From an uncultured Gammaproteobacteria bacterium (lineage in GTDB: Bacteria; Pseudomonadota; Gammaproteobacteria; JAADHQ01), in the NCBI GenBank assembly GCA_963807455.1, contig CAWECS010000010.1:31524-95523 (forward strand): 64,000 nucleotides of DNA, given 5' to 3'. Positions 28,507 to 47,986 of this stretch are shown here, piece after piece. Numbering within the stretch: the stretch's first letter is position 1; each line of letters opens with the position of its first letter. Position numbers and translations under genes: made by a program. A model generated the notes under the pieces. The model was not told the DNA's origin. It did not search any database and saw only the letters and a list, made by a program, of their open reading frames with translations.

Positions 28507-29148
28507 ATGGACTTGGCAATACAGGATACAACTTCACTCAAAGCTGACCGGCTCGCCTGTGTACGCAGTGAAATCGAGCTTTTTCGAGAATTAAGCTTTG
28601 AACTACTACCCGGTCAGCTGATCCAGATCGAGGGCGCCAACGGCTGTGGAAAAACCAGCCTGCTGCGTATTCTGTGTGGCCTGAGTCGGGCCGCCGAAGG
28701 GGAAGTATTGTGGCGCAGTCGAGAGATTGAACACTGTCGCCAGGAGTATTATGCCGAAATGACCTATGTCGGTCACAATAATGGTCTCAAAGCTAACCTG
28801 ACCTGTGAAGAGAACCTGAAAGTGTCCGCACTGCAGAATCACTTGCGAGCAGAGCATGATATTGAACAGGCGCTGGAAAAAATGGGGCTGGAAGAGCTCA
28901 TCGACGAATTTGCTGGTAAGTTATCAGCAGGCCAGCAACGGCGGCTGGCTTTAGCGCGCCTGTTATTGACCGATGCACCGCTATGGATACTCGATGAACC
29001 CTTTACAGCACTGGACCTTGCCAGCCGTGAACTGATGGAAGGTATTTTTGATCAACATTGCCAGACAGGCGGCATGATCATACTAACCACGCATCACCAC
29101 ATGACGATTCCACATACAGAAGTTAAATTACTGAAAATAAACGCATGA
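28507..29148 (+). CDS. ccmA: Cytochrome c biogenesis ATP-binding export protein CcmA
   Basis: Walker A GANGCGKTSLLR and ABC signature LSAGQQRRLALARL. Start taken at ATG 28507 by homology to CcmA N-termini. Confidence 0.85.
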   Translation: MDLAIQDTTSLKADRLACVRSEIELFRELSFELLPGQLIQIEGANGCGKTSLLRILCGLSRAAEGEVLWRSREIEHCRQEYYAEMTYVGHNNGLKANLTCEENLKVSALQNHLRAEHDIEQALEKMGLEELIDEFAGKLSAGQQRRLALARLLLTDAPLWILDEPFTALDLASRELMEGIFDQHCQTGGMIILTTHHHMTIPHTEVKLLKINA

Positions 29149-29825
29149 CCAATACCAGCACACATGCCCTGAAAACCTTGTTATGGCGTGACTTTACCCT
29201 TGCAGCCAGAAATAAATCCGAATGGATGAACCCGCTGCTGTTTTTTATTTTTGCTGCGGTACTATTTCCGTTAGGCATAGGTCCTGATACGGTGATTTTA
29301 AAACAAATAGCACCAGGCATTATTTGGGTTGTAGCCCTATTGGCGGCATTGCTATCTCTGGATACGCTATTTCGTGCAGATTACGAGGATGGCAGCCTGG
29401 AACAACTAACGCTATCGCCCTATTCATTTTCCACCTTGATACTGGGGAAGATATCAGTGCACTGGCTGTTGACCGGACTGCCGTTGATTTTACTCTCGCC
29501 TTTACTGGCCACTTTTTTTCACCTGGATGCCGCTGCAACTTTTATCCTGATGCAAACTCTATTACTTGGAACACCTGTTTTAAGTCTGGTTGGCGCAATA
29601 GGCAGTGCATTAACAGTCGGATTAAAACGTGGCAGTATGCTGATTTCACTGCTGGTATTACCATTATATGTACCGGTGTTGATATTTGGTGCCAATGCTG
29701 TTTCCGCCTCGACCGCCGGTCTTGATATTAGCGGACATTTAATGTTGATCGGCTCGTTACTGGTGCTGGCCATTACGTTGGCACCTCTGGCAACCGCAGC
29801 TGCCCTGCGCGCAAGTATAGGATAA
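29145..29825 (+). CDS. ccmB: Haem exporter protein CcmB
   Basis: 226 aa, 6 TM helices, CcmB family. ATGA overlap with ccmA. Confidence 0.85.
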   Translation: MTNTSTHALKTLLWRDFTLAARNKSEWMNPLLFFIFAAVLFPLGIGPDTVILKQIAPGIIWVVALLAALLSLDTLFRADYEDGSLEQLTLSPYSFSTLILGKISVHWLLTGLPLILLSPLLATFFHLDAAATFILMQTLLLGTPVLSLVGAIGSALTVGLKRGSMLISLLVLPLYVPVLIFGANAVSASTAGLDISGHLMLIGSLLVLAITLAPLATAAALRASIG

Positions 29826-29828
29826 GTT

Positions 29829-30569
29829 ATGTTACAAACCATTACTAAACTGGCCTCGTTAAGAAATTTTTATTTTTTCTGCGGAAAATTATTACCCTGG
29901 TTTGCCTGGCCTACATTGATTTTAATGCTTGTCGGCCTGTACTGGGGACTGGTCGAGGCACCCGCTGACTACCAGCAGAAAGATAGCTATCGCATTATCT
30001 TCATACATGTGCCGGCAGCATGGATGTCACTGTTTGTTTATATGGTGATGGCTACGTCTGCTGCCGCTTCATTGATCTGGAAGACCAAGGCATCCGAAGT
30101 GGTTGCTAATAGTTGCGCACCAGTTGGTGCTGCATTTACTTTTCTGGCGCTGGCTACTGGCTCTTTATGGGGTAAGCCCATGTGGGGTACCTGGTGGGAA
30201 TGGGATGCGCGCCTGACGTCGGAACTGGTATTGCTATTTTTATACCTGGGTTATATAGCATTGCAATCGGCCTTTGAAGACAAGCGTACAGCGGCCAGGG
30301 CTACCGCCATACTGGCCATTGTCGGTGTCGTTAACATTCCTATTATTCATTACTCGGTAGAATGGTGGTACACGCTGCATCAGGGCCCCACCGTACAGGT
30401 CATGAAAAATAAACAGGCTATGGATATCAGCATGCTGATTCCGTTGCTGATTATGGCGACCGCTTTCAAGTTTTATTTTGCTACCGTGCTATTGATGTTT
30501 AGCCGGAACGAAATCCTCGAAAGAGAGTCCCATACAAAATGGGTGCAAGAAGAGAGAGAACGATTATGA
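29829..30569 (+). CDS. ccmC: Haem exporter protein CcmC
   Basis: WWD-domain signature (GKPMWGTWWEWDARL) and conserved His. Confidence 0.9.
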   Translation: MLQTITKLASLRNFYFFCGKLLPWFAWPTLILMLVGLYWGLVEAPADYQQKDSYRIIFIHVPAAWMSLFVYMVMATSAAASLIWKTKASEVVANSCAPVGAAFTFLALATGSLWGKPMWGTWWEWDARLTSELVLLFLYLGYIALQSAFEDKRTAARATAILAIVGVVNIPIIHYSVEWWYTLHQGPTVQVMKNKQAMDISMLIPLLIMATAFKFYFATVLLMFSRNEILERESHTKWVQEERERL

Positions 30570-30733
30570 CTCTGTCAGAATTTTTTTATATGGACGGTTA
30601 CTACCTGTATGTCTGGGTCTCATATGGCCTGGCCCTGGTAGTGATGCTGGCCCTGTTTATCAACCCTATTCGACGTAAACGCCAGTTATTGAAACAACTG
30701 GGACGAAAAAAGAGACGAGGACAACGTATATGA
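30566..30733 (+). CDS. ccmD: Haem exporter protein CcmD
   Basis: About 55-aa single-TM protein (MTLSEFFYMDGYYLYVWVSYGLALVVML...). ATGA overlaps with ccmC and ccmE. Confidence 0.6.
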   Translation: MTLSEFFYMDGYYLYVWVSYGLALVVMLALFINPIRRKRQLLKQLGRKKRRGQRI

Positions 30734-31179
30734 CTCCAACGCGTAAACGCAGACTGATGGTTGTGTCCCTGATTATTCTGGGTGTTGGCACGGCCGCCGC
30801 TCTGGCACTGACTGCCTTCAATAAAAACCTGATGTTTTTCTATTCACCCAGCCAGGTTGCTGCCGGTGAGGCACCAATGAACCGATCATTCAGAGTCGGC
30901 GGCATGGTCAAGAACAACAGTCTTGTTCGTGACAAGGACGGCCTCACTGTTCGCTTTGTTGTGCATGATAACGTCAAGGAAGTCAGCATTGCCTATAAAG
31001 GTATTCTTCCGGACTTGTTCAGGGAAGGTCAGGGTATCGTGGCTCAGGGCAAGCTGAATTCCGAGAAACAATTCATTGCCGATGAAGTATTGGCCAAACA
31101 TGATGAAAATTATATGCCGCCGGAAGTCGCTGCAGCGATGAAACCTATAGGCATCGACAAAACACCCAAAGGTCAATAA
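30730..31179 (+). CDS. ccmE: Cytochrome c-type biogenesis haem chaperone CcmE
   Basis: N-terminal TM anchor and OB fold. Haem-binding His context (...FREGQGIVAQGKL...). Confidence 0.85.
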   Translation: MTPTRKRRLMVVSLIILGVGTAAALALTAFNKNLMFFYSPSQVAAGEAPMNRSFRVGGMVKNNSLVRDKDGLTVRFVVHDNVKEVSIAYKGILPDLFREGQGIVAQGKLNSEKQFIADEVLAKHDENYMPPEVAAAMKPIGIDKTPKGQ

Positions 31180-31182
31180 TCC

Positions 31183-33141
31183 ATGATTCCAGAAATTGGT
31201 CACTTCGCGCTCATTCTCGCCCTGTGTATGGCAATTACCCAGGCATTTTTCCCGATTGCAGGTGCCGCAATGGGCAAAGCCCGCTGGATGGCCATGGCCA
31301 AACCGACCGCACGCGGGCAGTTTATTTTCCTGCTGATCGCCTATATCTGTCTGACCTATGGATTTATTGTTAACGATTTTTCTATTGCTTACGTCGCTAA
31401 AAACTCCAACTCACTACTACCATTGCAATATCGGATCTCGGCGGTATGGGGTTCACACGAAGGCTCCCTGTTGCTATGGGGGTTGATCCTCGGCACCTGG
31501 ACATTGGCCGTGACTATCTTCAGTCGCCATTTGCCACAAGCTATGTTGGCGCGTGTTATTGGTGTCATGGGCCTGATCAGCATAGGCTTCCTGCTGTTCA
31601 TGTTACTGACTTCCAACCCCTTTGACAGGCTGTTACCAGCAGCGCCGGATGGCAATGACCTGAACCCACTATTACAGGACTTTGGCCTGATCATTCACCC
31701 GCCCATGTTATATATGGGCTATGTCGGTTTCTCTGTTGCTTTTGCATTTGCGATTGCGGCGCTACTAGGAGGCCAGCTGGATAGTGCCTGGGCACGCTGG
31801 TCTCGACCCTGGACAACCATGGCATGGGCCTTCCTGACGGTGGGTATCGCGCTCGGAAGTTGGTGGGCCTATTACGAACTGGGCTGGGGTGGCTGGTGGT
31901 TCTGGGACCCGGTTGAAAATGCCTCTTTCATGCCCTGGTTGGTGGGCACAGCATTAATTCATTCACTGGCGGTTGCAGAAAAACGCGGCGCCTTCAAAAG
32001 CTGGACAGTGATGTTGGCCATACTGGCTTTCTCACTGAGTTTACTGGGAACCTTCCTGGTTCGTTCCGGAGTACTCAACTCGGTGCATGCTTTTGCTACC
32101 GACCCGGCCAGGGGTGTATTTATTCTGATCTTCCTCGGTATTGTGATTGGTGGTTCGTTATTACTGTATGCATTCCGCGCCAACAGCATTCAATCGATTG
32201 GCAAATTCAGTCTGTTCTCGCGGGAAACGCTATTACTCACCAATAACGTCATTCTCGTGGTTGCCTGTGCTACCGTATTATTCGGCACTTTGTACCCCCT
32301 GTTGATTGATGCATTATTTAATGAAAAATTATCTGTGGGCCCGCCTTATTTCCAATCAGTTTTCGTGCCCTTGATGATTCCGATTCTGTTTTTGTCTGCT
32401 GTTGGCCCCATGACACGCTGGAAACAGGATAGCATTGCACGACTGGCCAATGACCTCAAATTCATGTTTGTGTTTGCACTCCTGACTGGTATCGCTGCCT
32501 ATTATATCCTCGGCGATATCTCCTGGCCGGTCGCCATGATCATCGCCCTGTTTACCTGGATGGTCGCCAGCAGTTTCTTTAATCTGTACAAGCATGTGCA
32601 AAACAAAACCAACAAACTGACTGCGCTGCTCCACGTACCACGAAGTTTTTATGGCATGTTTCTCGCGCATATTGGAGTGGCTGTTTTCATGCTTGGAGTG
32701 ACTTTTACCAGTAACTACAGTATCGAACAGGACATCCGCATGAAGCCTGGCGAAAGCCTGAGCCTGGGTGGCTATGATTTCCTTTTCAATGGCGCCACCG
32801 AAGTCATTGGTCCCAATTACCGGGCGCAGGAAGGCAATATCACTGTCACGCGCAACGGCCAACCCTATACGGAACTGAAACCACAAAAGCGCTTGTATGT
32901 AGTCCAACGCAGTCCTATGACTGAAGCGGCCATTGATGCCGGCCTGATGCGTGACCTGTTCGTGGCCATGGGTGAACCGCTGGAGAATGGCGAATGGAGT
33001 GTACGCATGCAATATAAACCGCTGATTCGCTGGATCTGGCTGGGCACATTGATCATGGCGTTGGGTGGGGTGTTGGCACTCAGTGACAAGCGCTATCGCT
33101 TGAAGCGTAAAAACGAAAAATCCGTGGTGCAAGCAACATGA
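31183..33141 (+). CDS. ccmF: Cytochrome c-type biogenesis haem lyase CcmF
   Basis: 652 aa, polytopic. WWD domain (WGGWWFWDPVEN). Confidence 0.9.
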   Translation: MIPEIGHFALILALCMAITQAFFPIAGAAMGKARWMAMAKPTARGQFIFLLIAYICLTYGFIVNDFSIAYVAKNSNSLLPLQYRISAVWGSHEGSLLLWGLILGTWTLAVTIFSRHLPQAMLARVIGVMGLISIGFLLFMLLTSNPFDRLLPAAPDGNDLNPLLQDFGLIIHPPMLYMGYVGFSVAFAFAIAALLGGQLDSAWARWSRPWTTMAWAFLTVGIALGSWWAYYELGWGGWWFWDPVENASFMPWLVGTALIHSLAVAEKRGAFKSWTVMLAILAFSLSLLGTFLVRSGVLNSVHAFATDPARGVFILIFLGIVIGGSLLLYAFRANSIQSIGKFSLFSRETLLLTNNVILVVACATVLFGTLYPLLIDALFNEKLSVGPPYFQSVFVPLMIPILFLSAVGPMTRWKQDSIARLANDLKFMFVFALLTGIAAYYILGDISWPVAMIIALFTWMVASSFFNLYKHVQNKTNKLTALLHVPRSFYGMFLAHIGVAVFMLGVTFTSNYSIEQDIRMKPGESLSLGGYDFLFNGATEVIGPNYRAQEGNITVTRNGQPYTELKPQKRLYVVQRSPMTEAAIDAGLMRDLFVAMGEPLENGEWSVRMQYKPLIRWIWLGTLIMALGGVLALSDKRYRLKRKNEKSVVQAT

Positions 33142-33671
33142 AATTACGTTCACTGATACCACTGATCGCTTTTCTGGTACTGGTTATTTTTCTCGCCATT
33201 GGACTGACACGTGATCCAAAAAAGATTCCATCGCCACTGATCGGCAAACCATCGCCGCAATTTGAATTACCCGCTGTTCTGCAACCGGGACAGAAAGTCA
33301 GTCAGAGTGATTTTCTCGGTAAGGTGGTGTTATTCAATGTCTGGGCATCATGGTGCGTTGCCTGTCGACAGGAACATCCGTTATTGGTGGAATTTGCAAA
33401 AAACCATAACACTCCCGTCTATGGCCTTAACTACAAGGATCAACGCACTGATGCGATTCGTTGGTTGCAGGCTTTCGGTAATCCTTACATCAGCAGTGCC
33501 TATGATGTCACCGGAACAGCAGGAATAGACTGGGGTGTATACGGTGTACCGGAAACTTTCCTGATCGATAAAAAAGGCATCATACGTTACAAACAAATCG
33601 GCCCGGTAACTGAAGACGTCATCAGCAATGAAATACTGCCACTCATCCGGAAACTGGAACAGGAATCATGA
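33138..33671 (+). CDS. ccmG: Thiol:disulfide interchange protein CcmG/DsbE
   Basis: Thioredoxin fold with WCVAC active site (WASWCVACRQEHP). N-terminal anchor. Confidence 0.85.
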   Translation: MKLRSLIPLIAFLVLVIFLAIGLTRDPKKIPSPLIGKPSPQFELPAVLQPGQKVSQSDFLGKVVLFNVWASWCVACRQEHPLLVEFAKNHNTPVYGLNYKDQRTDAIRWLQAFGNPYISSAYDVTGTAGIDWGVYGVPETFLIDKKGIIRYKQIGPVTEDVISNEILPLIRKLEQES

Positions 33672-34150
33672 AATCCATAAACATCGCCTTGTTAGCTTTT
33701 TTATTGTCTCTGATCTCGGTCAATGCCTATTCGGCATTCAATACCTACCAGTTTGACGATCCGATCAAGAAACAGCGCTTTGATAAATTGATCAATGAAT
33801 TACGTTGCACCGTTTGTCAGAACCAGACCATTGCCGGTTCCAATGCCGACCTCGCTAAAGATCTACGCGACAAAGTCTATAAAATGGTCAATGAAGGAAA
33901 AACAGAACAAGAGATCAAGGACTTTATGGTCGACCGTTTTACCGACTTTGTTTTATATAATCCTCCCTTGAAAGAAAGCACCTATCTGTTATGGTGGGGA
34001 CCCTTTTTTTTACTGGTGTTTGCCGTCATCATGCTGATTGTACAAATACGTAAACGCACGCAAGCACCATCCATCGACATCAACCCGCAGCAACATGAGC
34101 GCATTCAGCAACTGCTGAAGACAGAACAAAAGGATAACAACAATGATTAG
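33668..34150 (+). CDS. ccmH: Cytochrome c-type biogenesis protein CcmH
   Basis: LRCxxCQ motif (LRCTVCQNQTIAGSNADLAKDLR). C-terminal TM. Confidence 0.8.
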   Translation: MKSINIALLAFLLSLISVNAYSAFNTYQFDDPIKKQRFDKLINELRCTVCQNQTIAGSNADLAKDLRDKVYKMVNEGKTEQEIKDFMVDRFTDFVLYNPPLKESTYLLWWGPFFLLVFAVIMLIVQIRKRTQAPSIDINPQQHERIQQLLKTEQKDNNND

Positions 34151-35405
34151 CTTTTCCATCATCGCGGCCCTGATGCTGCTGGGCGCACTGATACTGATCA
34201 TCCGTCCCTTGATGCGCGCTCCCAAGGATAGTCAGGTTGAACGCCAGCAGATCAACCTGGATATCTACAAACAGCGATTGACTGAACTGGAAAATGACCT
34301 GGCCGAAGGACAGATAGAACAACACGAATATTCTGCTGCACAACAGGACCTGGAAAAACAACTTATTTTCGATATACCGGAACACAGCGCGCAAAAAAAT
34401 ATTGATGCCCGGCGCAGTCAGGGCAGCCTGATCACACTCGTGATAGCATTGCCTGCATCCGCTCTGGGGCTTTATCTCTACCTCGGCAACCCCACTGCTA
34501 TCAATCCAGACGCAACACAAACACAGGCAGCAAGCCCACATGCCGGCGCGGTCAAATCTGACAAACCAATGCCCAGCGTTACAGAAATGATTGTAAAAAT
34601 AAAACAACGCCTGCAGGAAAACCCCACAGACCCTAAAGGCTGGAACCTGCTGGCCCGTTCATACATGCACACAAAACAATTTGACAAGGCTGAACAGGCA
34701 CTGGAAAAGCTCACCGAACTGGTAACAGATGATCCTAATATATGGGCCAATTATGCTGATGTGGCTGCTGTTAACCAGCAGGGGAAACTTGATGGCAAAC
34801 CCTATGAATTTACCAAACGTGCCCTGTCACTGGAACCCAAACATCCAAAGGCACTGTGGTTGGCTGGCACATATCATTTCCAACAGCAAAGTTATGACAA
34901 GGCGATACGCTTCTGGGAAATCCTGCAGCGTCTGTTACCACCTGAGTCTAAAGATGCCGAGATGATCAATAACAGTATTGCTGATGCCCGCAAACAATTA
35001 GGTATCAGTCCTGCTGACACTCAAGCATCAATCAAACCTGCCATGCCCATGGCAGCGGCTGTCAGCATTTCCGGACAGGTGAGCCTGGCCGAACAGCTCA
35101 AGGACAAAGTAAGTCCGGATGACACTGTGTTCGTTTATGCGCGTGCAGCCAGCGGCCCACGCATGCCACTGGCCGTGGTACGCAAACAGGTCAAGGACCT
35201 GCCTTTTGAATTTACACTGGATGACAGCATGGCGATGATGCCGCAGATGAAACTATCCGGATTTGATAAGGTGGTCGTGAGTGCACGAATTTCAAAATCC
35301 GGTAATGCCATCACACAAAGTGGTGACCTGAGCAGTGACAAACTGGAAGTCTTAACAAGCAAGCATGACCCTGTTACTCTGGAAATTAATACATTAGTAC
35401 CATAA
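34143..35405 (+). CDS. ccmI: Cytochrome c-type biogenesis protein CcmI/CycH (TPR)
   Basis: N-terminal TM and coiled coil, C-terminal TPR repeats. Last gene of the ccm operon. Confidence 0.7.
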   Translation: MISFSIIAALMLLGALILIIRPLMRAPKDSQVERQQINLDIYKQRLTELENDLAEGQIEQHEYSAAQQDLEKQLIFDIPEHSAQKNIDARRSQGSLITLVIALPASALGLYLYLGNPTAINPDATQTQAASPHAGAVKSDKPMPSVTEMIVKIKQRLQENPTDPKGWNLLARSYMHTKQFDKAEQALEKLTELVTDDPNIWANYADVAAVNQQGKLDGKPYEFTKRALSLEPKHPKALWLAGTYHFQQQSYDKAIRFWEILQRLLPPESKDAEMINNSIADARKQLGISPADTQASIKPAMPMAAAVSISGQVSLAEQLKDKVSPDDTVFVYARAASGPRMPLAVVRKQVKDLPFEFTLDDSMAMMPQMKLSGFDKVVVSARISKSGNAITQSGDLSSDKLEVLTSKHDPVTLEINTLVP

Positions 35406-35422
35406 GTCTAAATTCTTCAGAC

Positions 35423-35460
35423 AAAAAAAGCCCCGTTCAATACATGCACGGGGCTTTTCA
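35423..35460. terminator. Bidirectional rho-independent terminator between ccmI (+) and the porin (-)
   Basis: aaaaaaa-GCCCCG-ttcaatacatgca-CGGGGC-tttt. An A-tract upstream and a T-tract downstream. Coordinates approximate. Confidence 0.65.
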
Positions 35461-35474
35461 AACTATCCTTGTTT

Positions 35475-36548
35475 CTAGAATTTTACATTCAAATTCGCCT
35501 GAATCCTGTATCGATCCCGATCATTGAATCTGGCATCACTTGTGCTTGCACCTAATGTTGCTGTATCCACTATTCTTTCCATGTCATAGTACCTCAAATC
35601 CAGAGCAACTCTTTTCGCTAACTGGTAATCCAGCTGCAAGCGAAAACCATCAAAGTTGGAAACACCCGTACTACCCGGGTTTGGAAAATCGTCCTGTGAA
35701 AAGGTACCATCACCCAAAGGCGCGTGCGCTTCAACATCGAAGTAATACAGTCGCAATCCCACTTTATTATTTACTTTATAACGACCTTCCAGCACATACG
35801 CTGTATCATTAGTATTGGCATCACTCTTCAAGTATTCCAAACCAAAACGCCATGGCCCTGTCCTTAGCTCACCGTTAAGCATCCAGTGGTCTTCTGCCTG
35901 AAATGTACCCGTTGGTGCATCAAGCATGGCGCCACCCAGAGCCGCCTTGAATTTCATGCCTTCTATTACGCCTGCATAAACGGCTTGATATAGGAAAACA
36001 TCCGTATCATCACCCCAGGATCCTTCATTCACCATGGCATAGGCACCATTGAGTGTCAGCGGGCCATTATTATAAACGACGGTAAAAGCATCCGGATTAA
36101 TATCTTTATCCCAGAACATTTCGCTGGATTGCCAGTAATTTAATGGCGTCTTACCTGCATGCAGTGTCAGGCTTGAATAGGGTTTATAGGCAACATAAGC
36201 CTGATCAAAACCAATGTCAGCATTTTTGGAACCATCATTTGTGCCAAAAGTAATATGCGGTGAATTTAGCGCACTGGTGCCGGTGGCCAAACGCAATACG
36301 CCTGACCATTGATCATCCACTTTGTAACTGAGGCCCAGGCGTGCCCGATAACGAAAGCGATCTCGGTCCTGGCCAACACCTGCCGAAGTGGTGCGATCAT
36401 CATATTCGGCACGCAAACGAAAATCGCCATACAGTTTTACATTGCCGTCCTTATCCAGATCGATCGCGGCTTGTGCTAGTCCTGTCGATGCCGTCATTGA
36501 CGCAATCAGGGCAACATTTATTACCGACTTGTTGTTCATGATTTTCAT
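35475..36548 (-). CDS. Outer-membrane beta-barrel porin
   Basis: Signal peptide. Alternating-polarity beta strands throughout. Terminal motif ...ANLNVKF. 357 aa. Confidence 0.6.
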   Translation of the reverse strand: MKIMNNKSVINVALIASMTASTGLAQAAIDLDKDGNVKLYGDFRLRAEYDDRTTSAGVGQDRDRFRYRARLGLSYKVDDQWSGVLRLATGTSALNSPHITFGTNDGSKNADIGFDQAYVAYKPYSSLTLHAGKTPLNYWQSSEMFWDKDINPDAFTVVYNNGPLTLNGAYAMVNEGSWGDDTDVFLYQAVYAGVIEGMKFKAALGGAMLDAPTGTFQAEDHWMLNGELRTGPWRFGLEYLKSDANTNDTAYVLEGRYKVNNKVGLRLYYFDVEAHAPLGDGTFSQDDFPNPGSTGVSNFDGFRLQLDYQLAKRVALDLRYYDMERIVDTATLGASTSDARFNDRDRYRIQANLNVKF

Positions 36549-36579
36549 AGCAAAGCCCTTCCTCTCTATTTAATAATAG

Positions 36580-37161
36580 TTATTTAAAACGTAACGCAGA
36601 CATGCTGTCATTTATTATTTCCTTTACCTTGGCATAGTCGTTATATAAAAACACAATATAGGCATCGGCATGATTGTCCTTGTGCAATGTCAGCATCAAG
36701 GCCTGACGATAGTGTGCTGAATAGCTGTCACTCACATCAAGCACCGCGGCAGCGGCCCAGCCAGCATTGAAGCGTTGCTGTGATTGCTCAGTCGGGTATT
36801 CCTTTCTGGGACTGTGACCACCATCCGATAATTGCGTGACGATCGTCTCAAACATCATATTAAACAAATGGTTTGGTTCGGGCGCATTATTATGCGGGTC
36901 TTCATAGTCGACCTTGATGCGCTTGATCGGCCTTATACTGTACCTGATCTCCATCAAATCACTAACATGACGCAGTGCATATTCATACGGCAGTACATCA
37001 TCCCTGGCGGGTGGTATTTCCTTAAACCCCGGTATCTCCGTCATTCTAAGTCCCGACTCCTGCAGTAAAGCAGCAAAGTCCAGCGTGTTTTTCGCCGCGC
37101 ATAACTGAACTGAAGAAACCAGAAAAACAAATCCGAAAAATAATTTGAATGAACTTGCCAT
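36580..37161 (-). CDS. Secreted hypothetical protein
   Basis: Start at internal ATG 37161 (MASSFKLFFGFVFLVSSVQLCAA signal peptide). The upstream extension in the track overlaps the preceding gene. Confidence 0.5.
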   Translation of the reverse strand: MASSFKLFFGFVFLVSSVQLCAAKNTLDFAALLQESGLRMTEIPGFKEIPPARDDVLPYEYALRHVSDLMEIRYSIRPIKRIKVDYEDPHNNAPEPNHLFNMMFETIVTQLSDGGHSPRKEYPTEQSQQRFNAGWAAAAVLDVSDSYSAHYRQALMLTLHKDNHADAYIVFLYNDYAKVKEIINDSMSALRFK

Positions 37162-37177
37162 CAACTCAACCAGGTAT

Positions 37178-37963
37178 TCATGATTTATCGGTCGCCTTGC
37201 CCGCCTTCCCTTGCCATTCATCCAGCAGTTTTTGTGCCGTCTGTTTCCAGGACTCGCTCTCACTCAAATCGATAAATCGTTGCAGATCGGCGATAGCCAA
37301 CGGTTTTTTATCCATCGCATCATACACTGCAGCGCGATTGAAGTAGGGTGCCGCAACGTCAGGTTGAACTTCAATACAGGCATTGAAGTCGGCCAATGCA
37401 GACTTGTATTCGCCACTGCTGAAACGGATTGCGCCACGATTGAAATGTGCCGCCACCAGGCCAGGCTCCAGTTTCAGTGCCTGCTCAAGGTCCTTCAATG
37501 CCTCTTCTATACTGCCAAAGCTGCGATAGGCCTGGGCACGATTAACATGCAACAAGGCATTATGCGGCTCAATAGCAATGGCTGCCTCCAGATCTTGCAA
37601 TGCCATGCTGGCCTTGCCTGACTCCAACAGGAGACTGGCACGCACAGAAAGCAACTCTGCATTATTGGAATATTGCTTGATCGCCTGATCGAGAACAGCA
37701 AAGGCCTCTTGCGGCCTGCCCTCCTGGTGATGTTGCAACGCAACCAGGATGTGCTTGTCCGGCATAAGCGCGGCATGTGGATCATAGGGGCCATGTGCGC
37801 CAGAGCGTTTTTTGACAGAGGTATCAGCACCCGCCATTGCCTTGCTGACATCCATGCTTGTCGATGATGCTGTCGCGGCAGCTTTATCACCCCGGTCGCA
37901 CGCCCCTATCCCGATCATAGACACTAGTAAGAACAGCAGTGTCCAGTATGTTAATCTTTGCAT
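37178..37963 (-). CDS. TPR-repeat lipoprotein
   Basis: Lipobox LVSMIGIGAC. Five or more TPR units (...AELLSVRASLLLESGKASMALQDLEAAIAIEPHNALLHVNRAQAY...). Confidence 0.7.
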   Translation of the reverse strand: MQRLTYWTLLFLLVSMIGIGACDRGDKAAATASSTSMDVSKAMAGADTSVKKRSGAHGPYDPHAALMPDKHILVALQHHQEGRPQEAFAVLDQAIKQYSNNAELLSVRASLLLESGKASMALQDLEAAIAIEPHNALLHVNRAQAYRSFGSIEEALKDLEQALKLEPGLVAAHFNRGAIRFSSGEYKSALADFNACIEVQPDVAAPYFNRAAVYDAMDKKPLAIADLQRFIDLSESESWKQTAQKLLDEWQGKAGKATDKS

Positions 37964-37991
37964 ACCATTCCTTTCTTCTGCTTTTCAGTGT

Positions 37992-40397
37992 CTATTTCTT
38001 TGACTTACTTCCAGCATAAGTCTTGAACATCTTGTTCATCAACTCAATGTGCTGATCATCGGTCAGTGTTCCAGGCTGGGCCACCTTACCCCAAAGCTGC
38101 TCATTGGTCATTTCACGGTGACAACCCATACACAGACCGGTGCGCTTCATACCATCGCGCATTTCCTTGGTCAGGGACCTGGACAATGGCCAATGGGTAC
38201 CCACCGTTGCTACCTGCTCGCCCTTCTCGTTGACAATCGTGGACAAGTCGAAATCCAACCCGTCTATCTTAGGTATCTGGATCTGATAACGTCCCGGAAT
38301 TGGCTTTCCGGTCTTCTGGTCAATCAGGTCCTCGATCACATTTTCTGTGCTACGGGCCATAAATACGCCTCCAGAGATACCGTAACCCATGGCCTTCGGG
38401 TTGTTATGACAACTCTCACAGGTACGCGCCTTGCGCTGTGCTGAATGTGGCTGCACCGGTGCCATATCGATTCCCAACGGTATACGCTTCTGACCTAATT
38501 GCTTCGCCTCGTCGGTAGACCGGCCTGTCTGGTTCAACGCAATGGTCTTGCCCTTACGGTCAATCACAGTATAGATCACCTGGCAACCCGGCATCAGCGG
38601 AGTGACACGACCTTCACCATTGATGCCCAGAACCGGCTCTTCCCAACGCAAATAGGAACGGGTTTCAAACGCTTTACCTGGGCTCTTGATACCGCCTGTT
38701 CCCAGGATGGATTCAGCCGTTTCACCATCCGATGTACGCTTGTTACCGGAAGCGACCCAGTCAATATCCTGATATGGTTTGCCTTTACTGTCATTGCTGT
38801 AGTCCATTTTCACGTGACAGCCATAGCACTGCGGTACCCAGGAAGCATGACAGGCATAACATTCAAGACTCTCCGAATGTTTTTCTACCCGGTCCATAGC
38901 CACCATAGCATTCGGGCTCTTCCAGTTGTCATCCAGAGCCAACTGCTTGAGTATCGGCACTTCAAAATCATTACCTGTGGCTGAATGCAGTAAGACTTTT
39001 TTGCCATCCTTAACGACATTGCCAAAAGGATTACCGCGCGCAGTAACAAGATATCCATCTTTCTTGTCATAATGCGTTGCATAGGCTGAGGTTTCTGGCA
39101 ATGCAGCATCGGTGAGGCCACGCGGCTTGCTCGATAGCTTCTTGCCGAACTCCTCGCCATAACCCAATGGCAATTCCCACGGGAATTTACGTGGGGTGCC
39201 ATGGCAGTCTTCACATTCAATCTCTACCTGTGCCAACGTGGTGCCGAAGATGTTGCCGTCGCCATGCATATCAATGGTGGTATGACAGTCCTGGCACAAC
39301 AAGCCCCCTTTGGGATTACCTTTGCGGCTCTTGATCTGGTGATGCAGGTCATCGGAGATAAACAGGTATTTCTTGGTATGCAGTTTGGGCTGCTTCTTGC
39401 CCTGCTCATTGAATGGGCTGCCATAGGGGAATTCCATTAGACCCTGATAGGTCACACCAATACGCTTACCGCGATTATGGCAAGAGTTACAGGATTCTAC
39501 CGGAATACCAGAATAGGTTGTTGTGGGCGTTTTAACCTTGGCTTCGCGTGTAGCCTGGATGCTGTGTACCAGCATATGGCCCTGCTTGGTTTTATCGATA
39601 GTCGGATCGCCACCTTCGTAGTAGGCATCGTTACTGTAAGGTATATGGCAGGAGGAACAACCCATACCACGAAAGTCACCACGCTTCTCGCGTCCGCGCA
39701 CACCAACATGGCAGCGTTGACACTGCTGGCGCTGATAGGTCATGCCAGCAAGCTTGGGATCTTTTTCGATTTCCTCGACTGTGGGTTGTGGCACCATTTT
39801 CAGTTCTTTCGGGAACTGCTTGGGATGCGCCTTGGTCATAGCCACCATGTAATCTTTATATTCTTGCGTGCCGATATTCGGGATAGGGCCATCGGTATCT
39901 TTTACATCATAGTTACCCCACGGCACATTGTGATCAAACACTTCCTTGATGCCCCAGGTATGCAGGTTACCCTGAATCTTGCCAGCTTCTGTATTCATCA
40001 GGGATTTTTCCAGACGCTCTGAATAACTCTGGTGACAGCCGGCTTGACTGCATGTGAACTTGTTAATCCATATACTTCCTGGATCACGATAAAATTCCTG
40101 CGGACCCTTGGCTGCTTTCAGGCTCTCGGGACTGCCTGCATGCGCATCATTCTTGGTGGTTGCCTTGGGATTGCCGCCATGACACACAACACAACCATTC
40201 GCATCACCATGACCACTACCCACGCCCTTGATCTGCAACATCATCGCACTGGTATTTTCGCGAATCGGCTCCAGGCCTTCATGGCAAGCCAGACAGCCCT
40301 TCTCGTCAGCGAGCTTTTTCGAAACGGTGTCCATTTTAGCAATGGCGGTGGAAGATACAGTCAACATTAACAGCGCAAGAAGAGTGGTTATTTTCAT
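37992..40397 (-). CDS. Periplasmic multiheme cytochrome c, about 11–12 haem sites, of unassigned family
   Basis: 801 aa with signal peptide. Motifs CLACH, CVVCH, CSQAGCH (CX4CH-like), CQRCH, CSSCH, CNSCH, CQDCH, CEDCH, CYACH, CYGCH, CESCH, CMGCH. Confidence 0.8.
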   Translation of the reverse strand: MKITTLLALLMLTVSSTAIAKMDTVSKKLADEKGCLACHEGLEPIRENTSAMMLQIKGVGSGHGDANGCVVCHGGNPKATTKNDAHAGSPESLKAAKGPQEFYRDPGSIWINKFTCSQAGCHQSYSERLEKSLMNTEAGKIQGNLHTWGIKEVFDHNVPWGNYDVKDTDGPIPNIGTQEYKDYMVAMTKAHPKQFPKELKMVPQPTVEEIEKDPKLAGMTYQRQQCQRCHVGVRGREKRGDFRGMGCSSCHIPYSNDAYYEGGDPTIDKTKQGHMLVHSIQATREAKVKTPTTTYSGIPVESCNSCHNRGKRIGVTYQGLMEFPYGSPFNEQGKKQPKLHTKKYLFISDDLHHQIKSRKGNPKGGLLCQDCHTTIDMHGDGNIFGTTLAQVEIECEDCHGTPRKFPWELPLGYGEEFGKKLSSKPRGLTDAALPETSAYATHYDKKDGYLVTARGNPFGNVVKDGKKVLLHSATGNDFEVPILKQLALDDNWKSPNAMVAMDRVEKHSESLECYACHASWVPQCYGCHVKMDYSNDSKGKPYQDIDWVASGNKRTSDGETAESILGTGGIKSPGKAFETRSYLRWEEPVLGINGEGRVTPLMPGCQVIYTVIDRKGKTIALNQTGRSTDEAKQLGQKRIPLGIDMAPVQPHSAQRKARTCESCHNNPKAMGYGISGGVFMARSTENVIEDLIDQKTGKPIPGRYQIQIPKIDGLDFDLSTIVNEKGEQVATVGTHWPLSRSLTKEMRDGMKRTGLCMGCHREMTNEQLWGKVAQPGTLTDDQHIELMNKMFKTYAGSKSKK

Positions 40398-40610
40398 TAT
40401 GCCCCCTAGCAGTCACAGATAAGCCAGCTGATTACAACTTATTTTTAAAATCGTAGTAGACAGATACTGTTAAAGCAATTACATACCATACTTCTACACG
40501 GCGTCGATGCAATGTCATTGACCCAGATCAATTACTGGTAAATTCTTGATAACTGTTATTTACAAAAAATAAGCCATCCTGACACCACAGAAAACAAGAC
40601 GGTCCCAAAT

Positions 40611-40645
40611 AATAAAGCCGGGCTAATTGCGTAGCCCGGCTTTTA
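40611..40645 (-). terminator. Rho-independent terminator downstream of the YkgJ-family gene
   Basis: AGCCGGGCTA-attgcg-TAGCCCGGCT hairpin flanked by A/T runs. Coordinates approximate. Confidence 0.65.
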
Positions 40646-40680: not shown

Positions 40681-41610
40681 CTATTTCTCAGCACCTTCCT
40701 GAGGATCTCGCACATGATACTTTTTGATATTTTCTTCATGCTTTTTCTGGATGACATCCTTGCGTTGTTCATAGCGTTGTTTGGCTGCACCTTCTTTAAG
40801 TTTGATAGAATGCTCGCCAAACAGAACCTGTTTCAGGAAACGCATACAAAATCCGACCAACACTTCATCATCTTCATCAATGCCTTTGCGCATCTCGTCA
40901 TCGATGTCGAACATGTTGACAAAACCATCGCTCTGGGTAAACAAACGAAAGGCGTCCATATCATAGGACATGGAAAATAATTGCATGCTGCGTTCACTCG
41001 GCGCGCCGACGGTTGGGCCGGCTGAGCGTTTCTTAACAATGATATCCAGCCACTCACGGTTCATGTCGTCGTAGATTTCAACGCCCTGCTGCTTGCGGAA
41101 CTCAGCAATGGTCATTGGATTATCTTCCTCATGGCCTTTGCAATGATCTTCTTTCACCACAAAATAAAGGTCTTCAAATTTTTCAGCACCTTTACGATGC
41201 ATACCCATGGTGCCATAGGGATAATAGCGACAGGCAGTGGGTCGGTTTTCATAAACGCTACATCCTTCGTCTGTCATGAACTGGCAGGCAGTACCGCCAT
41301 CCACTGGACGCATTTTTGTGCCGGGCATGCCATGAAAATCCATCTCGTAAGGACGCGTATATTTTAGTTGAGCCTGCCAGGTAGAAATATCGAAATGTCT
41401 CGCCAGTCTCAAAATGTCATAAGGCGTCAAGGTGATATCGATATTGCTGCAACAGGCATTGAAACACTTAATGCCTTTATAGCAGCTGAATGAAATCTTC
41501 GAATCCAGGGATAACTGTTGCGGCTGCACAGCAGTCTTGAAGGGTAGATCCATTTCCTTGAAAATGTTCTCGTCAGTAAATTTTTCAATGGTTGGTTTAT
41601 CGTCGCTCAT
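40681..41610 (-). CDS. YkgJ/UPF0153-family cysteine-cluster (CxxCxxCC) putative Fe-S or zinc protein
   Basis: 309 aa. Motifs CYKGIKCFNACCS and further Cys pairs (CQFMTDEGCSVYENRPTACRYYPY). The C-terminus is Lys/Glu-rich. Confidence 0.55.
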   Translation of the reverse strand: MSDDKPTIEKFTDENIFKEMDLPFKTAVQPQQLSLDSKISFSCYKGIKCFNACCSNIDITLTPYDILRLARHFDISTWQAQLKYTRPYEMDFHGMPGTKMRPVDGGTACQFMTDEGCSVYENRPTACRYYPYGTMGMHRKGAEKFEDLYFVVKEDHCKGHEEDNPMTIAEFRKQQGVEIYDDMNREWLDIIVKKRSAGPTVGAPSERSMQLFSMSYDMDAFRLFTQSDGFVNMFDIDDEMRKGIDEDDEVLVGFCMRFLKQVLFGEHSIKLKEGAAKQRYEQRKDVIQKKHEENIKKYHVRDPQEGAEK

Positions 41611-41730
41611 ACCACTTTTCCTAGCGCTTTCCGAGTTTTGTTTGCGAGCCGAGTATTCTAACAGAATTCGGCTTATATCTCACTTATAGGGCCTGCTTTA
41701 GTGTGAAAACACTATTTATAATGAATGTTT

Positions 41731-41821
41731 AACCACGGAGGACACGGAGTCAACAGAGGGAGAAAAACATAACACTAATAACCACATCATAAACTCCGTG
41801 CTCTCCGTGTCCTCCGTGGTT
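41731..41821. repeat. Perfect 19-bp inverted repeat (AACCACGGAGGACACGGAG / CTCCGTGTCCTCCGTGGTT) separated by 53 nt
   Basis: Arms at 41731–41749 and 41803–41821. Located in the 485-bp non-coding spacer between aprA (3' end) and the YkgJ-family gene (5' end). Confidence 0.75.
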
Positions 41822-42095
41822 ACATGGTTTTTTCTGGGAAATAAGCTGCGATAAGTTCGGTGAGAGTCGCTCTCGCCCTTTTGGGTAACTTTGAAATTAA
41901 CTGTACAGTTTAGAACATCGCTCTCGCCCTTCCGTGGGACGCTCCTGCGCATCCTTGCGCCCGCGTCATTTGAACATCCATGTTCTTCGCTTCGCGATGT
42001 ATGCCCATCCATGGGTAACAGGCCATGCCTTCGAAAAGTAAATAAACGGTCCACAAAAACCCGAGGTTTTCACAGAATAATTTCCGAAGTAATTA

Positions 42096-44027
42096 TCAAG
42101 CGTTTTTGATCAACTGAACATAAGGTTCTTTAACCAGAGACCATTCTTTGGTCTTGCGGTCATATGTAGAGTTAACAAAACAGTTCCAGTTCTTGTCGTC
42201 CAGGTCAAGGAAGTCTGCACGATAGTAGTAACCCGGATAACGAGTTTCTTCACGGAACTGAATGTGCTTCATGTGTGCTTCTGCAGCAATGATGCGGTGG
42301 TAGTTTTCCCACGCACGCAGCAGTTCATGCAGGTCTTTCGCACGCATTTTTTCAGCATCTTCCTTCAGCATGCCCAGCTTACGTTCAGCAATACCCATCA
42401 TAGCAGCGTTAGTCTGGTAGTAAGTAGAAACACCGGCTACGTACTCGTCCATGCATTTTTGCAGACGGAACTGCAGCATTTTTGGAGTGATGTAGTTAGG
42501 ATTGATATCAATCGCTGTGGTGTAATCCTTGTGCTCAAGGAAGTTACGTACTGGCTTATAGATTTCTGCGACCAGATCATCAACTGAATCTTCAAGCTCT
42601 GGTTTGTAGTCTTTATTATCCAATGCGAAACGGATCATGGACTTGGCAGCCAGACGACCTTCAGTGAATGCACCTGAAGAGAACTTGTGGCCAGAAGCGC
42701 CAACACCGTCACCGGCAGTGAACAGACCATTAACAGTTGTCATACCACGATACTTGTTGCCGTTTGAACCCCAGCTCCAGTGCTCAGGAACACCTGGCAG
42801 ATCTTCCGGGCCAGAAACCCACAGACCGGCACAGCCAGCGTGTGAACCTAACAGGTAGGGTTCTGTTGGCATCAATTCTGACATTTCTTTATCAGGCTCG
42901 ATGTTTTCACCCGCCCAGATACCACACTGACCGATAGTCATGTCAAGGAAGTCTTCCCAGGCTTCTGCTTCCAGATGCTTGATTTCCTTTGGTGTCATTG
43001 TTTCAGCCAGCTTAGCCAATGCAGATGGAGTGTCCATGAAGATAGGACCCTTACCCGCTTTCATGTCGGCGATCATTAAATGGTTACGTAAACAAGTACC
43101 CATTACGTGACCGTGTACATGTGTACCATAGTTATGCTCTTCTAACAGATGAGCATTTGTTACCTGGTAATCTTCACCCTGTGCATTCATTGCTTTCGCT
43201 TTGAAGAGCAGGAACCACGCGCCTACAGGACCGTAACCGTCTTTGAACCGTGCAGGTACGAAACGGTTTTCAAGCATTGTGCCAGTCGCACCTGCTTCAA
43301 GAGCCATCGCATAAGTAGAACCGGCATTCCATACTGGATACCAGGCACGACCCTGACCTTCACCAACTGAACGTGGACGGAATACGTTAACCGCACCACC
43401 ACATACCAGCAGACAACACTTGAATTTGTAGACGTAAATCTTGTCTTCACGTACTGAGAAACCAACGGCACCAGCAACACGCTTGGGATCGTTCTTGTCA
43501 TTAATCAATTTAACGATAAAGACATGTTCCTGAATGTTTTCTGTTCCGAGCGATTTTTTAGCAGCTTCAGCAACGATCCATTTGTAGGATTCACCGTTGA
43601 TCATGATCTGCCATCTACCTGAACGAACCGGCTTGCCACCTTCGGTCAGTTTCTTGTCTTCGTCACCTAGTTGTTTCCATATAGGCAGACCCCATTCTTC
43701 GAACAGATGAACTGAACTGTCTACATGACGACCTACGTCATAGACCAGGTCTTCACGGATGATGCCCATCAAGTCAGTTTTAACCATACGAACGTAATCT
43801 GAAGGATCGTTGTCACCCATGTAGGTGTTGATCGCTGACAGACCCTGTGCAACAGCACCAGAACGGTCCATAGCTGCTTTATCAACCAGCTTGATGTTCA
43901 GGTCGTTGGCTTCTGCATAACGCATTATTTCAACACCAGCACCACAGGCTGCCATACCGCCACCGATGATAAGAATATCAAGTTCTTCTTCGACGACTTC
44001 CGGATTTCCAAATCCATAACCGGACAT
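42096..44027 (-). CDS. aprA: Adenylylsulfate (APS) reductase alpha subunit AprA
   Basis: FAD-binding GGGMAACGAG. Strong AprA-specific similarity throughout. Start placed at ATG 44027 (MSGYGFGNPEVV), with GAGAGG 6 nt upstream; the track start at 44042 lies inside this ribosome-binding site. Confidence 0.9.
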   Translation of the reverse strand: MSGYGFGNPEVVEEELDILIIGGGMAACGAGVEIMRYAEANDLNIKLVDKAAMDRSGAVAQGLSAINTYMGDNDPSDYVRMVKTDLMGIIREDLVYDVGRHVDSSVHLFEEWGLPIWKQLGDEDKKLTEGGKPVRSGRWQIMINGESYKWIVAEAAKKSLGTENIQEHVFIVKLINDKNDPKRVAGAVGFSVREDKIYVYKFKCCLLVCGGAVNVFRPRSVGEGQGRAWYPVWNAGSTYAMALEAGATGTMLENRFVPARFKDGYGPVGAWFLLFKAKAMNAQGEDYQVTNAHLLEEHNYGTHVHGHVMGTCLRNHLMIADMKAGKGPIFMDTPSALAKLAETMTPKEIKHLEAEAWEDFLDMTIGQCGIWAGENIEPDKEMSELMPTEPYLLGSHAGCAGLWVSGPEDLPGVPEHWSWGSNGNKYRGMTTVNGLFTAGDGVGASGHKFSSGAFTEGRLAAKSMIRFALDNKDYKPELEDSVDDLVAEIYKPVRNFLEHKDYTTAIDINPNYITPKMLQFRLQKCMDEYVAGVSTYYQTNAAMMGIAERKLGMLKEDAEKMRAKDLHELLRAWENYHRIIAAEAHMKHIQFREETRYPGYYYRADFLDLDDKNWNCFVNSTYDRKTKEWSLVKEPYVQLIKNA

Positions 44028-44084
44028 GTCTATACCTCTCAATTCTTTAAATTAATTATCTTGAAAACAATGATTCAATGCGAC

Positions 44085-44543
44085 TTAGGCAAACTGACTC
44101 ATGTCACAAGAATGAACATCATTGTCGAACAGCTTGTCGTAGGCAGCCAGATCAGCAGATGCAGCAGCAGGGCGACCGGCTTGAGGATCTGCAGAACCTT
44201 CAGCTGTTGTTCTAATCGGGAACTTAAAGCGTTTCTCGTTGCCGTTACGGAACTTGATCGTCCACATAATGGAGTTAGTTCCACGCAATGGCTGCACAGA
44301 ACCACCGAGAGGTACGATATCGGCGTAGTGACGACACTCAATTGCTTGCTGAGGACAGATCTTCACACAGGAATAACATTCCCAGCATTGTTCAGGCTCC
44401 TGGTTCCAGGCTTTCATTGCATGACCAGTTTCAGAGCCATCTTTATCAAGCTTCATCAGATCATGTGGACAGATATACATGCATGCAGTTTTGTCCTGAC
44501 CTTTACAGCCGTCACACTTGTCGGTACGTACGAATGTAGGCAT
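44085..44543 (-). CDS. aprB: Adenylylsulfate reductase beta subunit AprB (2x[4Fe-4S])
   Basis: MPTFVRTDKCDGCKGQDKTACMYICPHDLM... with two ferredoxin Cys clusters and the AprB C-terminal tail. Confidence 0.9.
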   Translation of the reverse strand: MPTFVRTDKCDGCKGQDKTACMYICPHDLMKLDKDGSETGHAMKAWNQEPEQCWECYSCVKICPQQAIECRHYADIVPLGGSVQPLRGTNSIMWTIKFRNGNEKRFKFPIRTTAEGSADPQAGRPAAASADLAAYDKLFDNDVHSCDMSQFA

Positions 44544-45012
44544 TTCGTTTTCTCCAAACGTTTACCGCGGTTTAAAAATCCCACTGGATTAATAGTGGCT
44601 CATGAGTTTTGATCTAATGGCCGTAAATCTTAATTCTTGTGTTGTAACGTCCTTAGCTGATGTCACTAAAATCAGCCTTTATCATCAGATAAGGACGCTG
44701 CCAGTCCGCCGAATGCGTGCTTTATTTCAGCCGATTCACGCCGATAACTTGATCCGGGACGCTAACCATATATATTTATACAGACAATGCAAAACAGTTA
44801 TATCTTTGCGGTAGCATAAATCTATCTTATTGAAGAAATGCTAATTTACGACCATATATGCTATTGTTTTTAATGACTATATAAATATTTTTATTTTTAA
44901 CTACCGATATATTAGAATATACTTATTTTATGCTATTCTAAATAATCTTAATTGGTAAGGCCATACGCTTGCCTGTACAGTATACCGACTCTTTTACTAG
45001 GTTATATAATTC

Positions 45013-47919: not shown

Positions 47920-47986
47920 CGAGTGACTAGTGGCTAGTAGCTAGGCTCTTTCTTTCCTCGCTACTAGCTACTCGATACTAGTCACT
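47917..47986. repeat. REP-like imperfect palindromic element in the soeA-soeB spacer
   Basis: tagCGAGTGACTAGTGGCTAGTAGCTAGG ... CCTCGCTACTAGCTACtcgatACTAGTCAC. The outer 8-bp stem TGACTAGT/ACTAGTCA pairs with an inner stem GGCTAGTAGCTAGG/CCTCGCTACTAGC. Confidence 0.7.

Follow-up and report, generated by a model that had tools for sequence, protein, structure and literature searches.

A four-gene cytochrome operon

The window examined here is a stretch of 64,000 nucleotides from an uncultured Gammaproteobacteria bacterium (contig CAWECS010000010.1), and our subject is a minus-strand operon within it that is led by the gene for a 12-haem cytochrome. Four genes follow one another on that strand: the cytochrome itself, with 801 amino acids (aa) and 12 haem sites (37992–40397); a tetratricopeptide repeat (TPR) lipoprotein of 261 aa (37178–37963); a secreted protein of 193 aa (36580–37161, with its ATG at 37161, where the list of open reading frames starts it at a GTG at 37263); and an outer-membrane porin of 357 aa (35475–36548). 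A palindrome of the FNR/CRP type, TTGATCTGGGTCAA (40518–40531, minus strand), lies ~120–135 bp 5′ of the cytochrome start codon, and a complete System I maturation operon, ccmABC(D)EFGHI (28462–35405, plus strand), converges on the four genes from the other side. We give about an even chance to the reading that this locus encodes an FNR-controlled periplasmic 12-haem oxidoreductase with one special haem, accompanied by a pair of non-redox accessory proteins and by an optional solute porin that only a minority of lineages, this one among them, possess. Directly observed among its elements are the layout and conservation of the haem sites, the FNR-type box, the Fnr-type neighbours, the linkage to ccm genes, the two accessory proteins and the family of the porin.

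The intergenic gaps in the operon, counted from the cytochrome downward, are 28, 16 and 31 bp. No terminator precedes the porin gene, which has a good Shine-Dalgarno sequence. Just 3′ of the porin stop codon, a GC-rich hairpin (35419–35468, minus strand) folds with −23.7 kcal/mol (z = −5.3 compared with shuffled sequences) and is followed by U7, which makes an intrinsic terminator that is also placed to stop the convergent ccmI gene. The loop of this hairpin is long, and a consensus terminator scan missed it. On the 5′ side, a gene with a CxxCxxCC motif (40681–41610) ends at its own terminator (40614–40643, minus strand), which sets the limit of the promoter region, and the four genes are therefore a separate transcription unit with its own promoter region. 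An earlier model-made reading of the same DNA, called here the original prediction, had described a four-gene minus-strand operon ending at a terminator, and the coordinates, the gaps and the hairpin with its U7 tract bear this out. It had put the gaps at 17–31 bp, of which the upper limit agrees with our measurement and the lower one does not. The lipoprotein, secreted protein and porin that it described are all borne out by their features (the lipobox IGAC in the TPR protein; the signal peptides; Pfam matches and a C-terminal Phe in the porin).

The cytochrome begins with a type I signal peptide (...AIA/K) and is Sec-exported, with a mass of ~94 kDa; no lipobox was found in it. Its 25 cysteines are accounted for by 11 CXXCH motifs, one CSQAGCH (residues 116–122) and a lone Cys605. 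A motif scan of the 801 residues did not find CXXCK or a CXnCH with a long spacer (CX5-20CH). Pfam returned generic multihaem domains together with a match of residues 223–402 to the MtrC/MtrF domain II/IV model (37.7 bits). An AlphaFold2 model predicted beta-rich domains, at a mean predicted local distance difference test (pLDDT) of 58, a quality at which a fold search on the model is not meaningful.

All 12 haem motifs are kept across 83 homologues, so the pattern is not due to chance. The same set, drawn from four phyla, shows 289 of the 801 positions conserved at ≥95%, and this very strong conservation also takes in the beta-rich domains and sequence outside the haem sites. Conservation as high as this is typical of enzymes. 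Outside the haem motifs, 11 His residues are conserved for the 12 haems, along with the lone Cys605. When distant representatives were scored for Cys605 and haem motif 10, both were found in 49, neither in 15, only the haem in 11 and only the Cys in 4. The Cys thus tracks the haem motif, which suggests that Cys605 belongs to the environment of haem 10.

The CSQAGCH site, singled out by the original prediction as an unusual CX4CH-type motif, is present as described, yet it is not a family signature. It is a two-residue insertion found in 20 of the 83 members; the other 62 have CGQCH there, and distant relatives carry CX6CH or CX9CH at this position. A dedicated haem lyase for the site was considered and rejected, as 62 of the 83 members have a plain CXXCH there and yet keep the ccm linkage.

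A widespread family distantly related to ExtM

Searches of all PDB chains with phmmer and with a 44-sequence profile gave no cytochrome among their matches at E values up to 5. Because these searches found no relative, and because CXXCK and CX15CH are absent, the cytochrome is by sequence not an OTR, ONR, HAO, NrfA or MccA-like protein; this answers, as far as sequence goes, the question of family that the original prediction had put to profile and structure searches. NrfA, ONR/TvNiR, OTR, HAO and MccA/SirA have 5 or 8 haems and CXXCK/CX15CH signatures, whereas the window cytochrome has 12 haem sites and neither signature.

The best curated family was ExtM (NCBIfam NF040943, an equivalog model), which scored 212 bits against a cut-off of 800. 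A protein that does pass this cut-off (P0377, 826 bits) is colinear with the window cytochrome over residues 8–673 (27% identity, E = 4e-59). Haem motifs 1–11 and the PGCQ around Cys605 align between the two, including the region of the CYGCH pair, and motif 12 occurs in both proteins. ExtM itself is GSU2935, a predicted 12-haem cytochrome of the extHIJKLMNOPQS cluster of Geobacter sulfurreducens (PMC5877670). Within that cluster only the porin-like ExtI was tested genetically, and its loss lowered selenite and tellurite reduction (PMC5877670). The likeness to ExtM thus covers 12 colinear haem sites, the lone Cys in PGCQ, a predicted periplasmic location and a porin-like gene in some of the clusters. 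The window cytochrome differs in being ~180 residues longer, in falling far below the family cut-off and in coming from aerobic or microaerobic marine lineages. The partners differ as well, with a TPR lipoprotein and a PsbP-like protein here, and ExtN, ExtO (Rieske) and ExtP (cytochrome b) for ExtM; genes for ExtN, ExtO and ExtP were absent from the window operon and from the 83 related loci.

Relatives of the cytochrome are numerous. A word-indexed search returned at least 2,526 matches, of which the best 120 were 69–93% identical; the few named entries among these 120 were called only "hypothetical protein" or "cytochrome C". The homologue of Shimia abyssi is likewise a "hypothetical protein" in RefSeq. 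An exhaustive search of representatives at 50% identity gave 1,311 proteins at E ≤0.001, of which 220 reach E ≤1e-30. A collection with a single genome for each species yielded 189 stretches that code for a relative, and the best 80 of these 189 come from Gammaproteobacteria, Thermaceae/Oceanithermus, one metagenome-assembled genome (MAG) of Myxococcota and many marine Alphaproteobacteria, including Roseibium aggregatum, Aliiruegeria, Tropicimonas and Shimia. Identity within the family ranges from 56 to 93% across Gamma- and Alphaproteobacteria, Deinococcota and Myxococcota. One gammaproteobacterial MAG among these (locus L003) has a cytochrome 93% identical to ours and the same four genes. 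Looking up the exact sequences of the window cytochrome and of P0123 led to no contig. A search of the PLSDB plasmid collection gave no match, and we found no description of the family in the literature on dodecahaem cytochromes, the Tenderia "uet" genes, Manganitrophus porin-cytochrome complexes, Sedimenticolaceae, or idr genes with porins. By sequence comparison, then, the cytochrome is a member of a large, widespread and unnamed periplasmic family with a distant relationship to ExtM. The locus has an ExtM-type 12-haem cytochrome that differs in size, partners and phylogenetic range, that is, a known kind of protein whose function is unassigned.

Predicted FNR-type control and attachment to ccm loci

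To describe the surroundings of the cytochrome gene, neighbouring open reading frames were clustered over the 83 loci, and FNR boxes were sought as TTGAT-N4-ATCAA with at most one mismatch. Of 73 homologous loci, 29 have such a box 5′ of the cytochrome, and 13 of these boxes are perfect. Their density is ~0.41 per 430 bp 5′ of the cytochrome compared with 0.03 over all locus sequence, an enrichment of ~14-fold. In 35 loci the cytochrome gene adjoins a regulator of the Crp/Fnr family with an N-terminal Cys cluster. No sigma-54 promoter was found 5′ of the cytochrome at ≤1 mismatch, and weak candidates appeared only in two gammaproteobacterial loci (L006 and L011). Across the whole window the FNR pattern occurs 13 times against 4.5 expected, a count that no shuffle reached, with sites at, for example, 1740, 9303, 9605, 43759, 45643 and 45694; this surplus hints at a broader FNR-type regulon in the region.

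The attachment to maturation genes was also found to be recurrent. Genes of the ccm set adjoin the cytochrome in ~43 loci, and the linkage is kept across phyla in differing arrangements. The whole ccm operon runs directly into the cytochrome operon in L004 and L005. In two Thermaceae/Oceanithermus loci (L016 and L017, ~6400–11800), the cytochrome, TPR and PsbP-like genes sit between ccmB and ccmC on the opposite strand, and in L020 the cytochrome module lies between ccmC and ccmE. Loci of the Roseibium type have a CcmF-CcmH-CcmI trio divergent from the cytochrome. One alphaproteobacterial locus (L038, 3039–7746 and 10395–10796) and ~40 others from this class have, on the side divergent from the cytochrome, an Fnr-like regulator and then that trio, in which CcmI is the TPR member. 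A Rap1a-like periplasmic protein with four Cys residues (PF18602) is encoded directly 3′ of the cytochrome in 40 alphaproteobacterial loci.

We considered that the cytochrome might have been transferred together with the ccm genes, and rejected this since CcmF identity follows taxonomy and cytochrome identity does not. Compared with the window, CcmF is 32% identical in Thermaceae, 44–52% in Alphaproteobacteria and 64–66% in Gammaproteobacteria, while the cytochrome is 56–83% identical; the L016 and L017 cytochromes in particular are 64–65% identical to ours beside a CcmF of 32%. The cytochrome gene has therefore moved into resident ccm loci, and for Thermaceae these identities indicate a horizontal acquisition into the resident ccm operon. 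In three phyla the gene has repeatedly come to lie within or next to a resident ccm operon, which could reflect a special dependence on the maturation machinery, such as an unusual modification involving Cys605.

FNR-controlled periplasmic reductases beside genes for cytochrome c maturation or haem lyase are familiar from the nap-ccm and nrfABCDEFG loci of Escherichia coli. These loci share the FNR box and the ccm linkage with the window operon and are the nearest precedent for that linkage, and the alphaproteobacterial trio of CcmF, CcmH and CcmI(TPR) has the same composition as NrfEFG. Unlike nap and nrf, the present family has no conserved CXXCK or other lyase-requiring motif and no quinol dehydrogenase of the NapC/NrfH type.

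Partner proteins and proposed function

In ~19 loci, from Gammaproteobacteria and Deinococcota plus two MAGs labelled Planctomycetales, the cytochrome gene is followed by those for the TPR protein and the 193-aa protein. The IGAC lipobox of the window TPR protein has Asp at +2, and no haem motif (CXXCH) was found in the protein. Its counterparts are lipoproteins in many loci and merely secreted in others. The 193-aa protein had no match in Pfam, NCBIfam or PDB sequence and profile searches, and it does not fall in the PsbP Pfam family; only 110 homologues were found. Its AlphaFold2 model is of good quality (pLDDT 88.7), and Foldseek matched the model to PsbP, CyanoP, an NDH subunit and Mog1 with probability 1.0 and template modelling (TM) scores of 0.40–0.55. 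The protein is accordingly predicted, from the model, to be an alpha-beta-alpha sandwich like those of PsbP, Mog1 and DcrB; it shares this predicted fold with PsbP, CyanoP and Mog1/DcrB-fold proteins but does not belong to their sequence families. Proteins with the PsbP/CyanoP/Mog1-type fold are typically non-catalytic extrinsic subunits on the periplasmic or lumenal side. A homology between the 193-aa protein and the alphaproteobacterial Rap1a-like protein was rejected (hhalign probability 0.6%). A conserved Asp-Pro-His motif is common to the two accessory proteins: the TPR protein has it in its linker, within GAHGxYDPH, and the PsbP-like protein within DYEDPHNxAPEPNH.

The porin exceeds the Pfam gathering thresholds of two families, Porin_5 (PF16930, 67.2 versus 22 bits) and Porin_4 (PF13609, 58.7 versus 27), the match running nearly end to end for the latter. 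It has a signal peptide ending in AQA and a C-terminus of ...NVKF, with the final Phe, and the mature protein is acidic, with ~330 residues and ~37 kDa. Sequence and profile searches of all PDB chains gave nothing relevant. A porin gene adjoins the cytochrome in six of the 83 loci, in three arrangements: 3′ of the 193-aa gene in the window, L003, L004 and L007; directly 3′ of the cytochrome in L013; and ahead of the cytochrome in a Myxococcota locus (L021). The porin-cytochrome link is thus real but optional, judging by gene order across the family.

This pattern bears on the central claim of the original prediction, that a periplasmic polyhaem protein is genetically tied to an outer-membrane barrel and a lipoprotein. 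The tie holds for the one operon seen here and for the recurrence of Porin_5 genes, and it does not hold in general. Co-conservation of the four genes was not found: besides the six loci with a porin, the TPR and secreted proteins occur in ~19 of 83, and most orthologues, including nearly all alphaproteobacterial ones, are without any of the three. As a finding that would count against it, the original prediction had named a known soluble enzyme with orthologues not linked to porin genes; half of this is the case, as the orthologues are indeed mostly not porin-linked, yet the protein is no known enzyme.

We then looked at where close homologues of the porin are encoded. Seven contexts were examined, and in four of them the porin gene (78, 49, 47 and 48% identity) lies immediately 3′ of an idr-like operon; in a fifth context it lies near such an operon. 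These operons encode two di-haem peroxidases, a Rieske subunit and an AioA/IdrA-type molybdoenzyme, in the manner of idrP1-idrP2-idrB-idrA. By the published criterion, it is the presence of both peroxidase genes that distinguishes the iodate reductase idrABP1P2 from arsenite oxidase (PMC8692401). The five loci that combine idr-like genes with the porin are L083 (175–7062), L084 (335–7062), L087 (169–7119), L089 (186–7086) and L085 (6001–13062), and each of the four co-directional idr-like operons has a sigma-54-like −24/−12 element 86–124 bp 5′ of its first peroxidase gene. We found no mention of this porin in the iodate papers searched. A second connection is regulatory. In the gammaproteobacterial loci L006 (3661–7671) and L011 (1508–5547), a sensor histidine kinase (HK_sensor_dom_bact and PAS) and a sigma-54-dependent response regulator are encoded directly upstream of the cytochrome, and L089 has a full-length homologous kinase, 33% identical, with a sigma-54 regulator beside its idr-like operon and porin (9949–13086). 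Compared with IdrABP1P2 (PMC8692401), the cytochrome loci thus have the same Porin_5 subfamily (up to 78% identity), a homologous kinase and a marine low-oxygen setting in common; the catalytic subunit of Idr differs in being a molybdoenzyme and not a cytochrome.

The operons that this porin subfamily accompanies encode soluble periplasmic enzymes acting on small solutes, which argues for a substrate channel rather than a sheath around a cytochrome. Since the cytochrome family also mostly lacks a porin neighbour, the small porin of this operon more likely serves to admit a dissolved substrate than to pass electrons through the outer membrane. The opposite view is that the cytochrome, lipoprotein and barrel form an outer-membrane porin-cytochrome conduit of the kind known from MtrCAB, PioAB or the Geobacter Ext clusters, exchanging electrons with minerals or electrodes outside the cell. 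The genes do share one operon, and MtrCAB, PioAB/MtoAB, OmaB-OmbB-OmcB and ExtABCD/ExtHIJKL likewise encode a multihaem cytochrome, a lipoprotein and a beta-barrel together. The weak match of residues 223–402 to the MtrC/MtrF model, the place of ExtM in a Geobacter cluster with the porin-like ExtI, and the recurrence of Porin_5 genes beside the cytochrome in three arrangements point the same way. So does a second cytochrome cluster in the window (4154–11137, plus strand), the 4–11 kb locus of the original prediction, which has four c7/c3-type multihaem cytochrome genes (5087–5821, 5763–6644, 6657–7316 and 7018–8247). Beside these it encodes a 297-aa protein unmatched in Pfam and one of 819 aa that matches BamD/YfiO weakly, and it is similar to the "uet" cluster that has been proposed to serve electron uptake in Tenderiales (bioRxiv 10.1101/2022.05.06.490989).

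Despite these resemblances, we consider a conduit highly improbable. The porin is missing from 77 of the 83 orthologous loci, its nearest relatives serve operons of soluble periplasmic enzymes, and the conservation of the cytochrome is far above that usual for surface cytochromes. Known conduit barrels have 20 or more strands and usually over 400–650 aa, far larger than a Porin_4/Porin_5 protein of 357 aa. The cytochrome, at 94 kDa and with beta-rich domains predicted, lacks a lipobox, and the only lipoprotein of the operon, the TPR protein, has no haem site. The operon therefore departs from the known conduits in its small barrel, haem-free lipoprotein, large non-lipoprotein cytochrome and unconserved porin link, and the conduit reading of the original prediction fails on the size of the porin, the lack of a haem lipoprotein and the lack of co-conservation.

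Under the oxidoreductase reading, the soluble, Sec-exported ~94-kDa cytochrome would most likely be a multi-electron enzyme acting on a small dissolved substrate. Eleven of its haems would be bis-His ligated, and haem 10 (CYGCH at residue 524) would be the special one, tied to the invariant Cys605, which may be a His/Cys ligand of this haem or an active-site thiol. The TPR lipoprotein and the PsbP-like protein would serve as non-redox subunits for assembly or tethering that hold the cytochrome at a membrane face, and the porin would be an optional add-on that passes the substrate, probably a small anion, through the outer membrane. Since the operon encodes no quinol dehydrogenase, electrons would be exchanged with the general periplasmic cytochrome pool.

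Several observations weigh against this proposal. If all haems are six-coordinate, a pure electron-transfer role becomes more likely. Eleven of the distant representatives retain haem 10 without Cys605, in counts that are not corrected for phylogeny, and the AlphaFold2 model, from which the placement of Cys605 relative to haem 10 would be read, is poor (pLDDT 58). ExtM has no assigned function of its own, the mutant tested being that of the extI porin only (PMC5877670). As for the idr connection, no idr gene was found near any cytochrome locus or in the window, the kinases are just 33% identical, and the porin is present in just six of the 83 loci.

A pure electron-transfer role has a definite form, in which the cytochrome is a non-catalytic periplasmic hub or capacitor that at low oxygen does no more than store electrons and pass them between the respiratory chain and other periplasmic reductases or oxidases, with the porin as an unrelated passenger gene. 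The eleven conserved distal His residues, together with Cys and Met candidates, could make all haems six-coordinate, and the operon has neither a quinol dehydrogenase nor an obvious gene for a catalytic cofactor. It also fits that ExtM adjoins a bc-type complex in Geobacter and that the cytochrome stands without an accessory gene in many loci. We nonetheless think a hub unlikely. Stretches outside the haem sites and the beta-rich domains are very strongly conserved, covariation ties the lone Cys to one particular haem, and dedicated accessory proteins are present; Porin_5 genes have become linked to the cytochrome repeatedly and independently, and so has a ligand-sensing kinase.

If the cytochrome is a periplasmic oxidoreductase, the question of its substrate follows, and two leads can be named. 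The first is by analogy: because the porin family and the type of sensor kinase are shared with idr-like loci, and because of the ExtI phenotype, the substrate may be an oxyanion, for example iodate or a chalcogen oxyanion, though these parallels point to it only weakly. Spelled out in full, the family would be a so far unrecognised periplasmic multihaem reductase for a marine oxyanion, with iodate as the most specific lead and selenite or tellurite as alternatives; it would act independently of the molybdenum enzyme Idr and be induced at low oxygen through FNR, and in some lineages the Porin_5 channel found with idr operons would supply it. In that complete form we regard the proposal as very unlikely.

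The main alternative lead is a sulfur compound, which is suggested by a possible His/Cys haem and a sulfur-oxidising host. In this substrate-specific version of the oxidoreductase reading, haem 10 would have the His/Cys ligation known from TsdA, SoxAX and DsrJ, and the enzyme would interconvert thiosulfate and tetrathionate, sulfite or polysulfide in a sulfur oxidiser's periplasm. Cys605 is invariant and covaries with haem 10, and many carriers are sulfur-oxidising Gammaproteobacteria or symbionts related to these. The genes flanking the operon (40681–49880) comprise the CxxCxxCC (YkgJ-like) gene, aprBA (42096–44543) and a SoeABC-like set of three molybdoenzyme genes (45013–49880), so that aprBA and a SoeABC-like enzyme are encoded beside the operon. 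The apr and soe genes do not accompany the cytochrome in a conserved way, not even in its 93% relative L003. There the cytochrome directly abuts the molybdenum-enzyme gene, which marks the segment with apr and the CxxCxxCC gene as variable. Many other carriers are heterotrophic marine Alphaproteobacteria or Thermaceae, and PDB sequence and profile searches found no sequence similarity to the structures of TsdA, SoxA or DsrJ. A sulfur-specific enzyme accordingly strikes us as quite unlikely.

For the biology of these organisms, the oxidoreductase reading is less exotic than a second conduit, and the locus cautions that a cytochrome encoded beside a barrel need not be an extracellular electron conduit. 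It also brings to attention a porin subfamily that accompanies iodate-reductase-like operons. It exposes a family that is widespread, very conserved and open to experiment, with an as yet unexplained tie to ccm loci, and because cultured carriers exist, among them Shimia abyssi, Roseibium aggregatum, Aliiruegeria and Tropicimonas, the function of the family is directly testable. In marine sediments, symbionts and vents, a family this conserved, with apparent oxygen control and embedded repeatedly in maturation loci, probably performs a common anaerobic or microaerobic redox reaction that has yet to be assigned.

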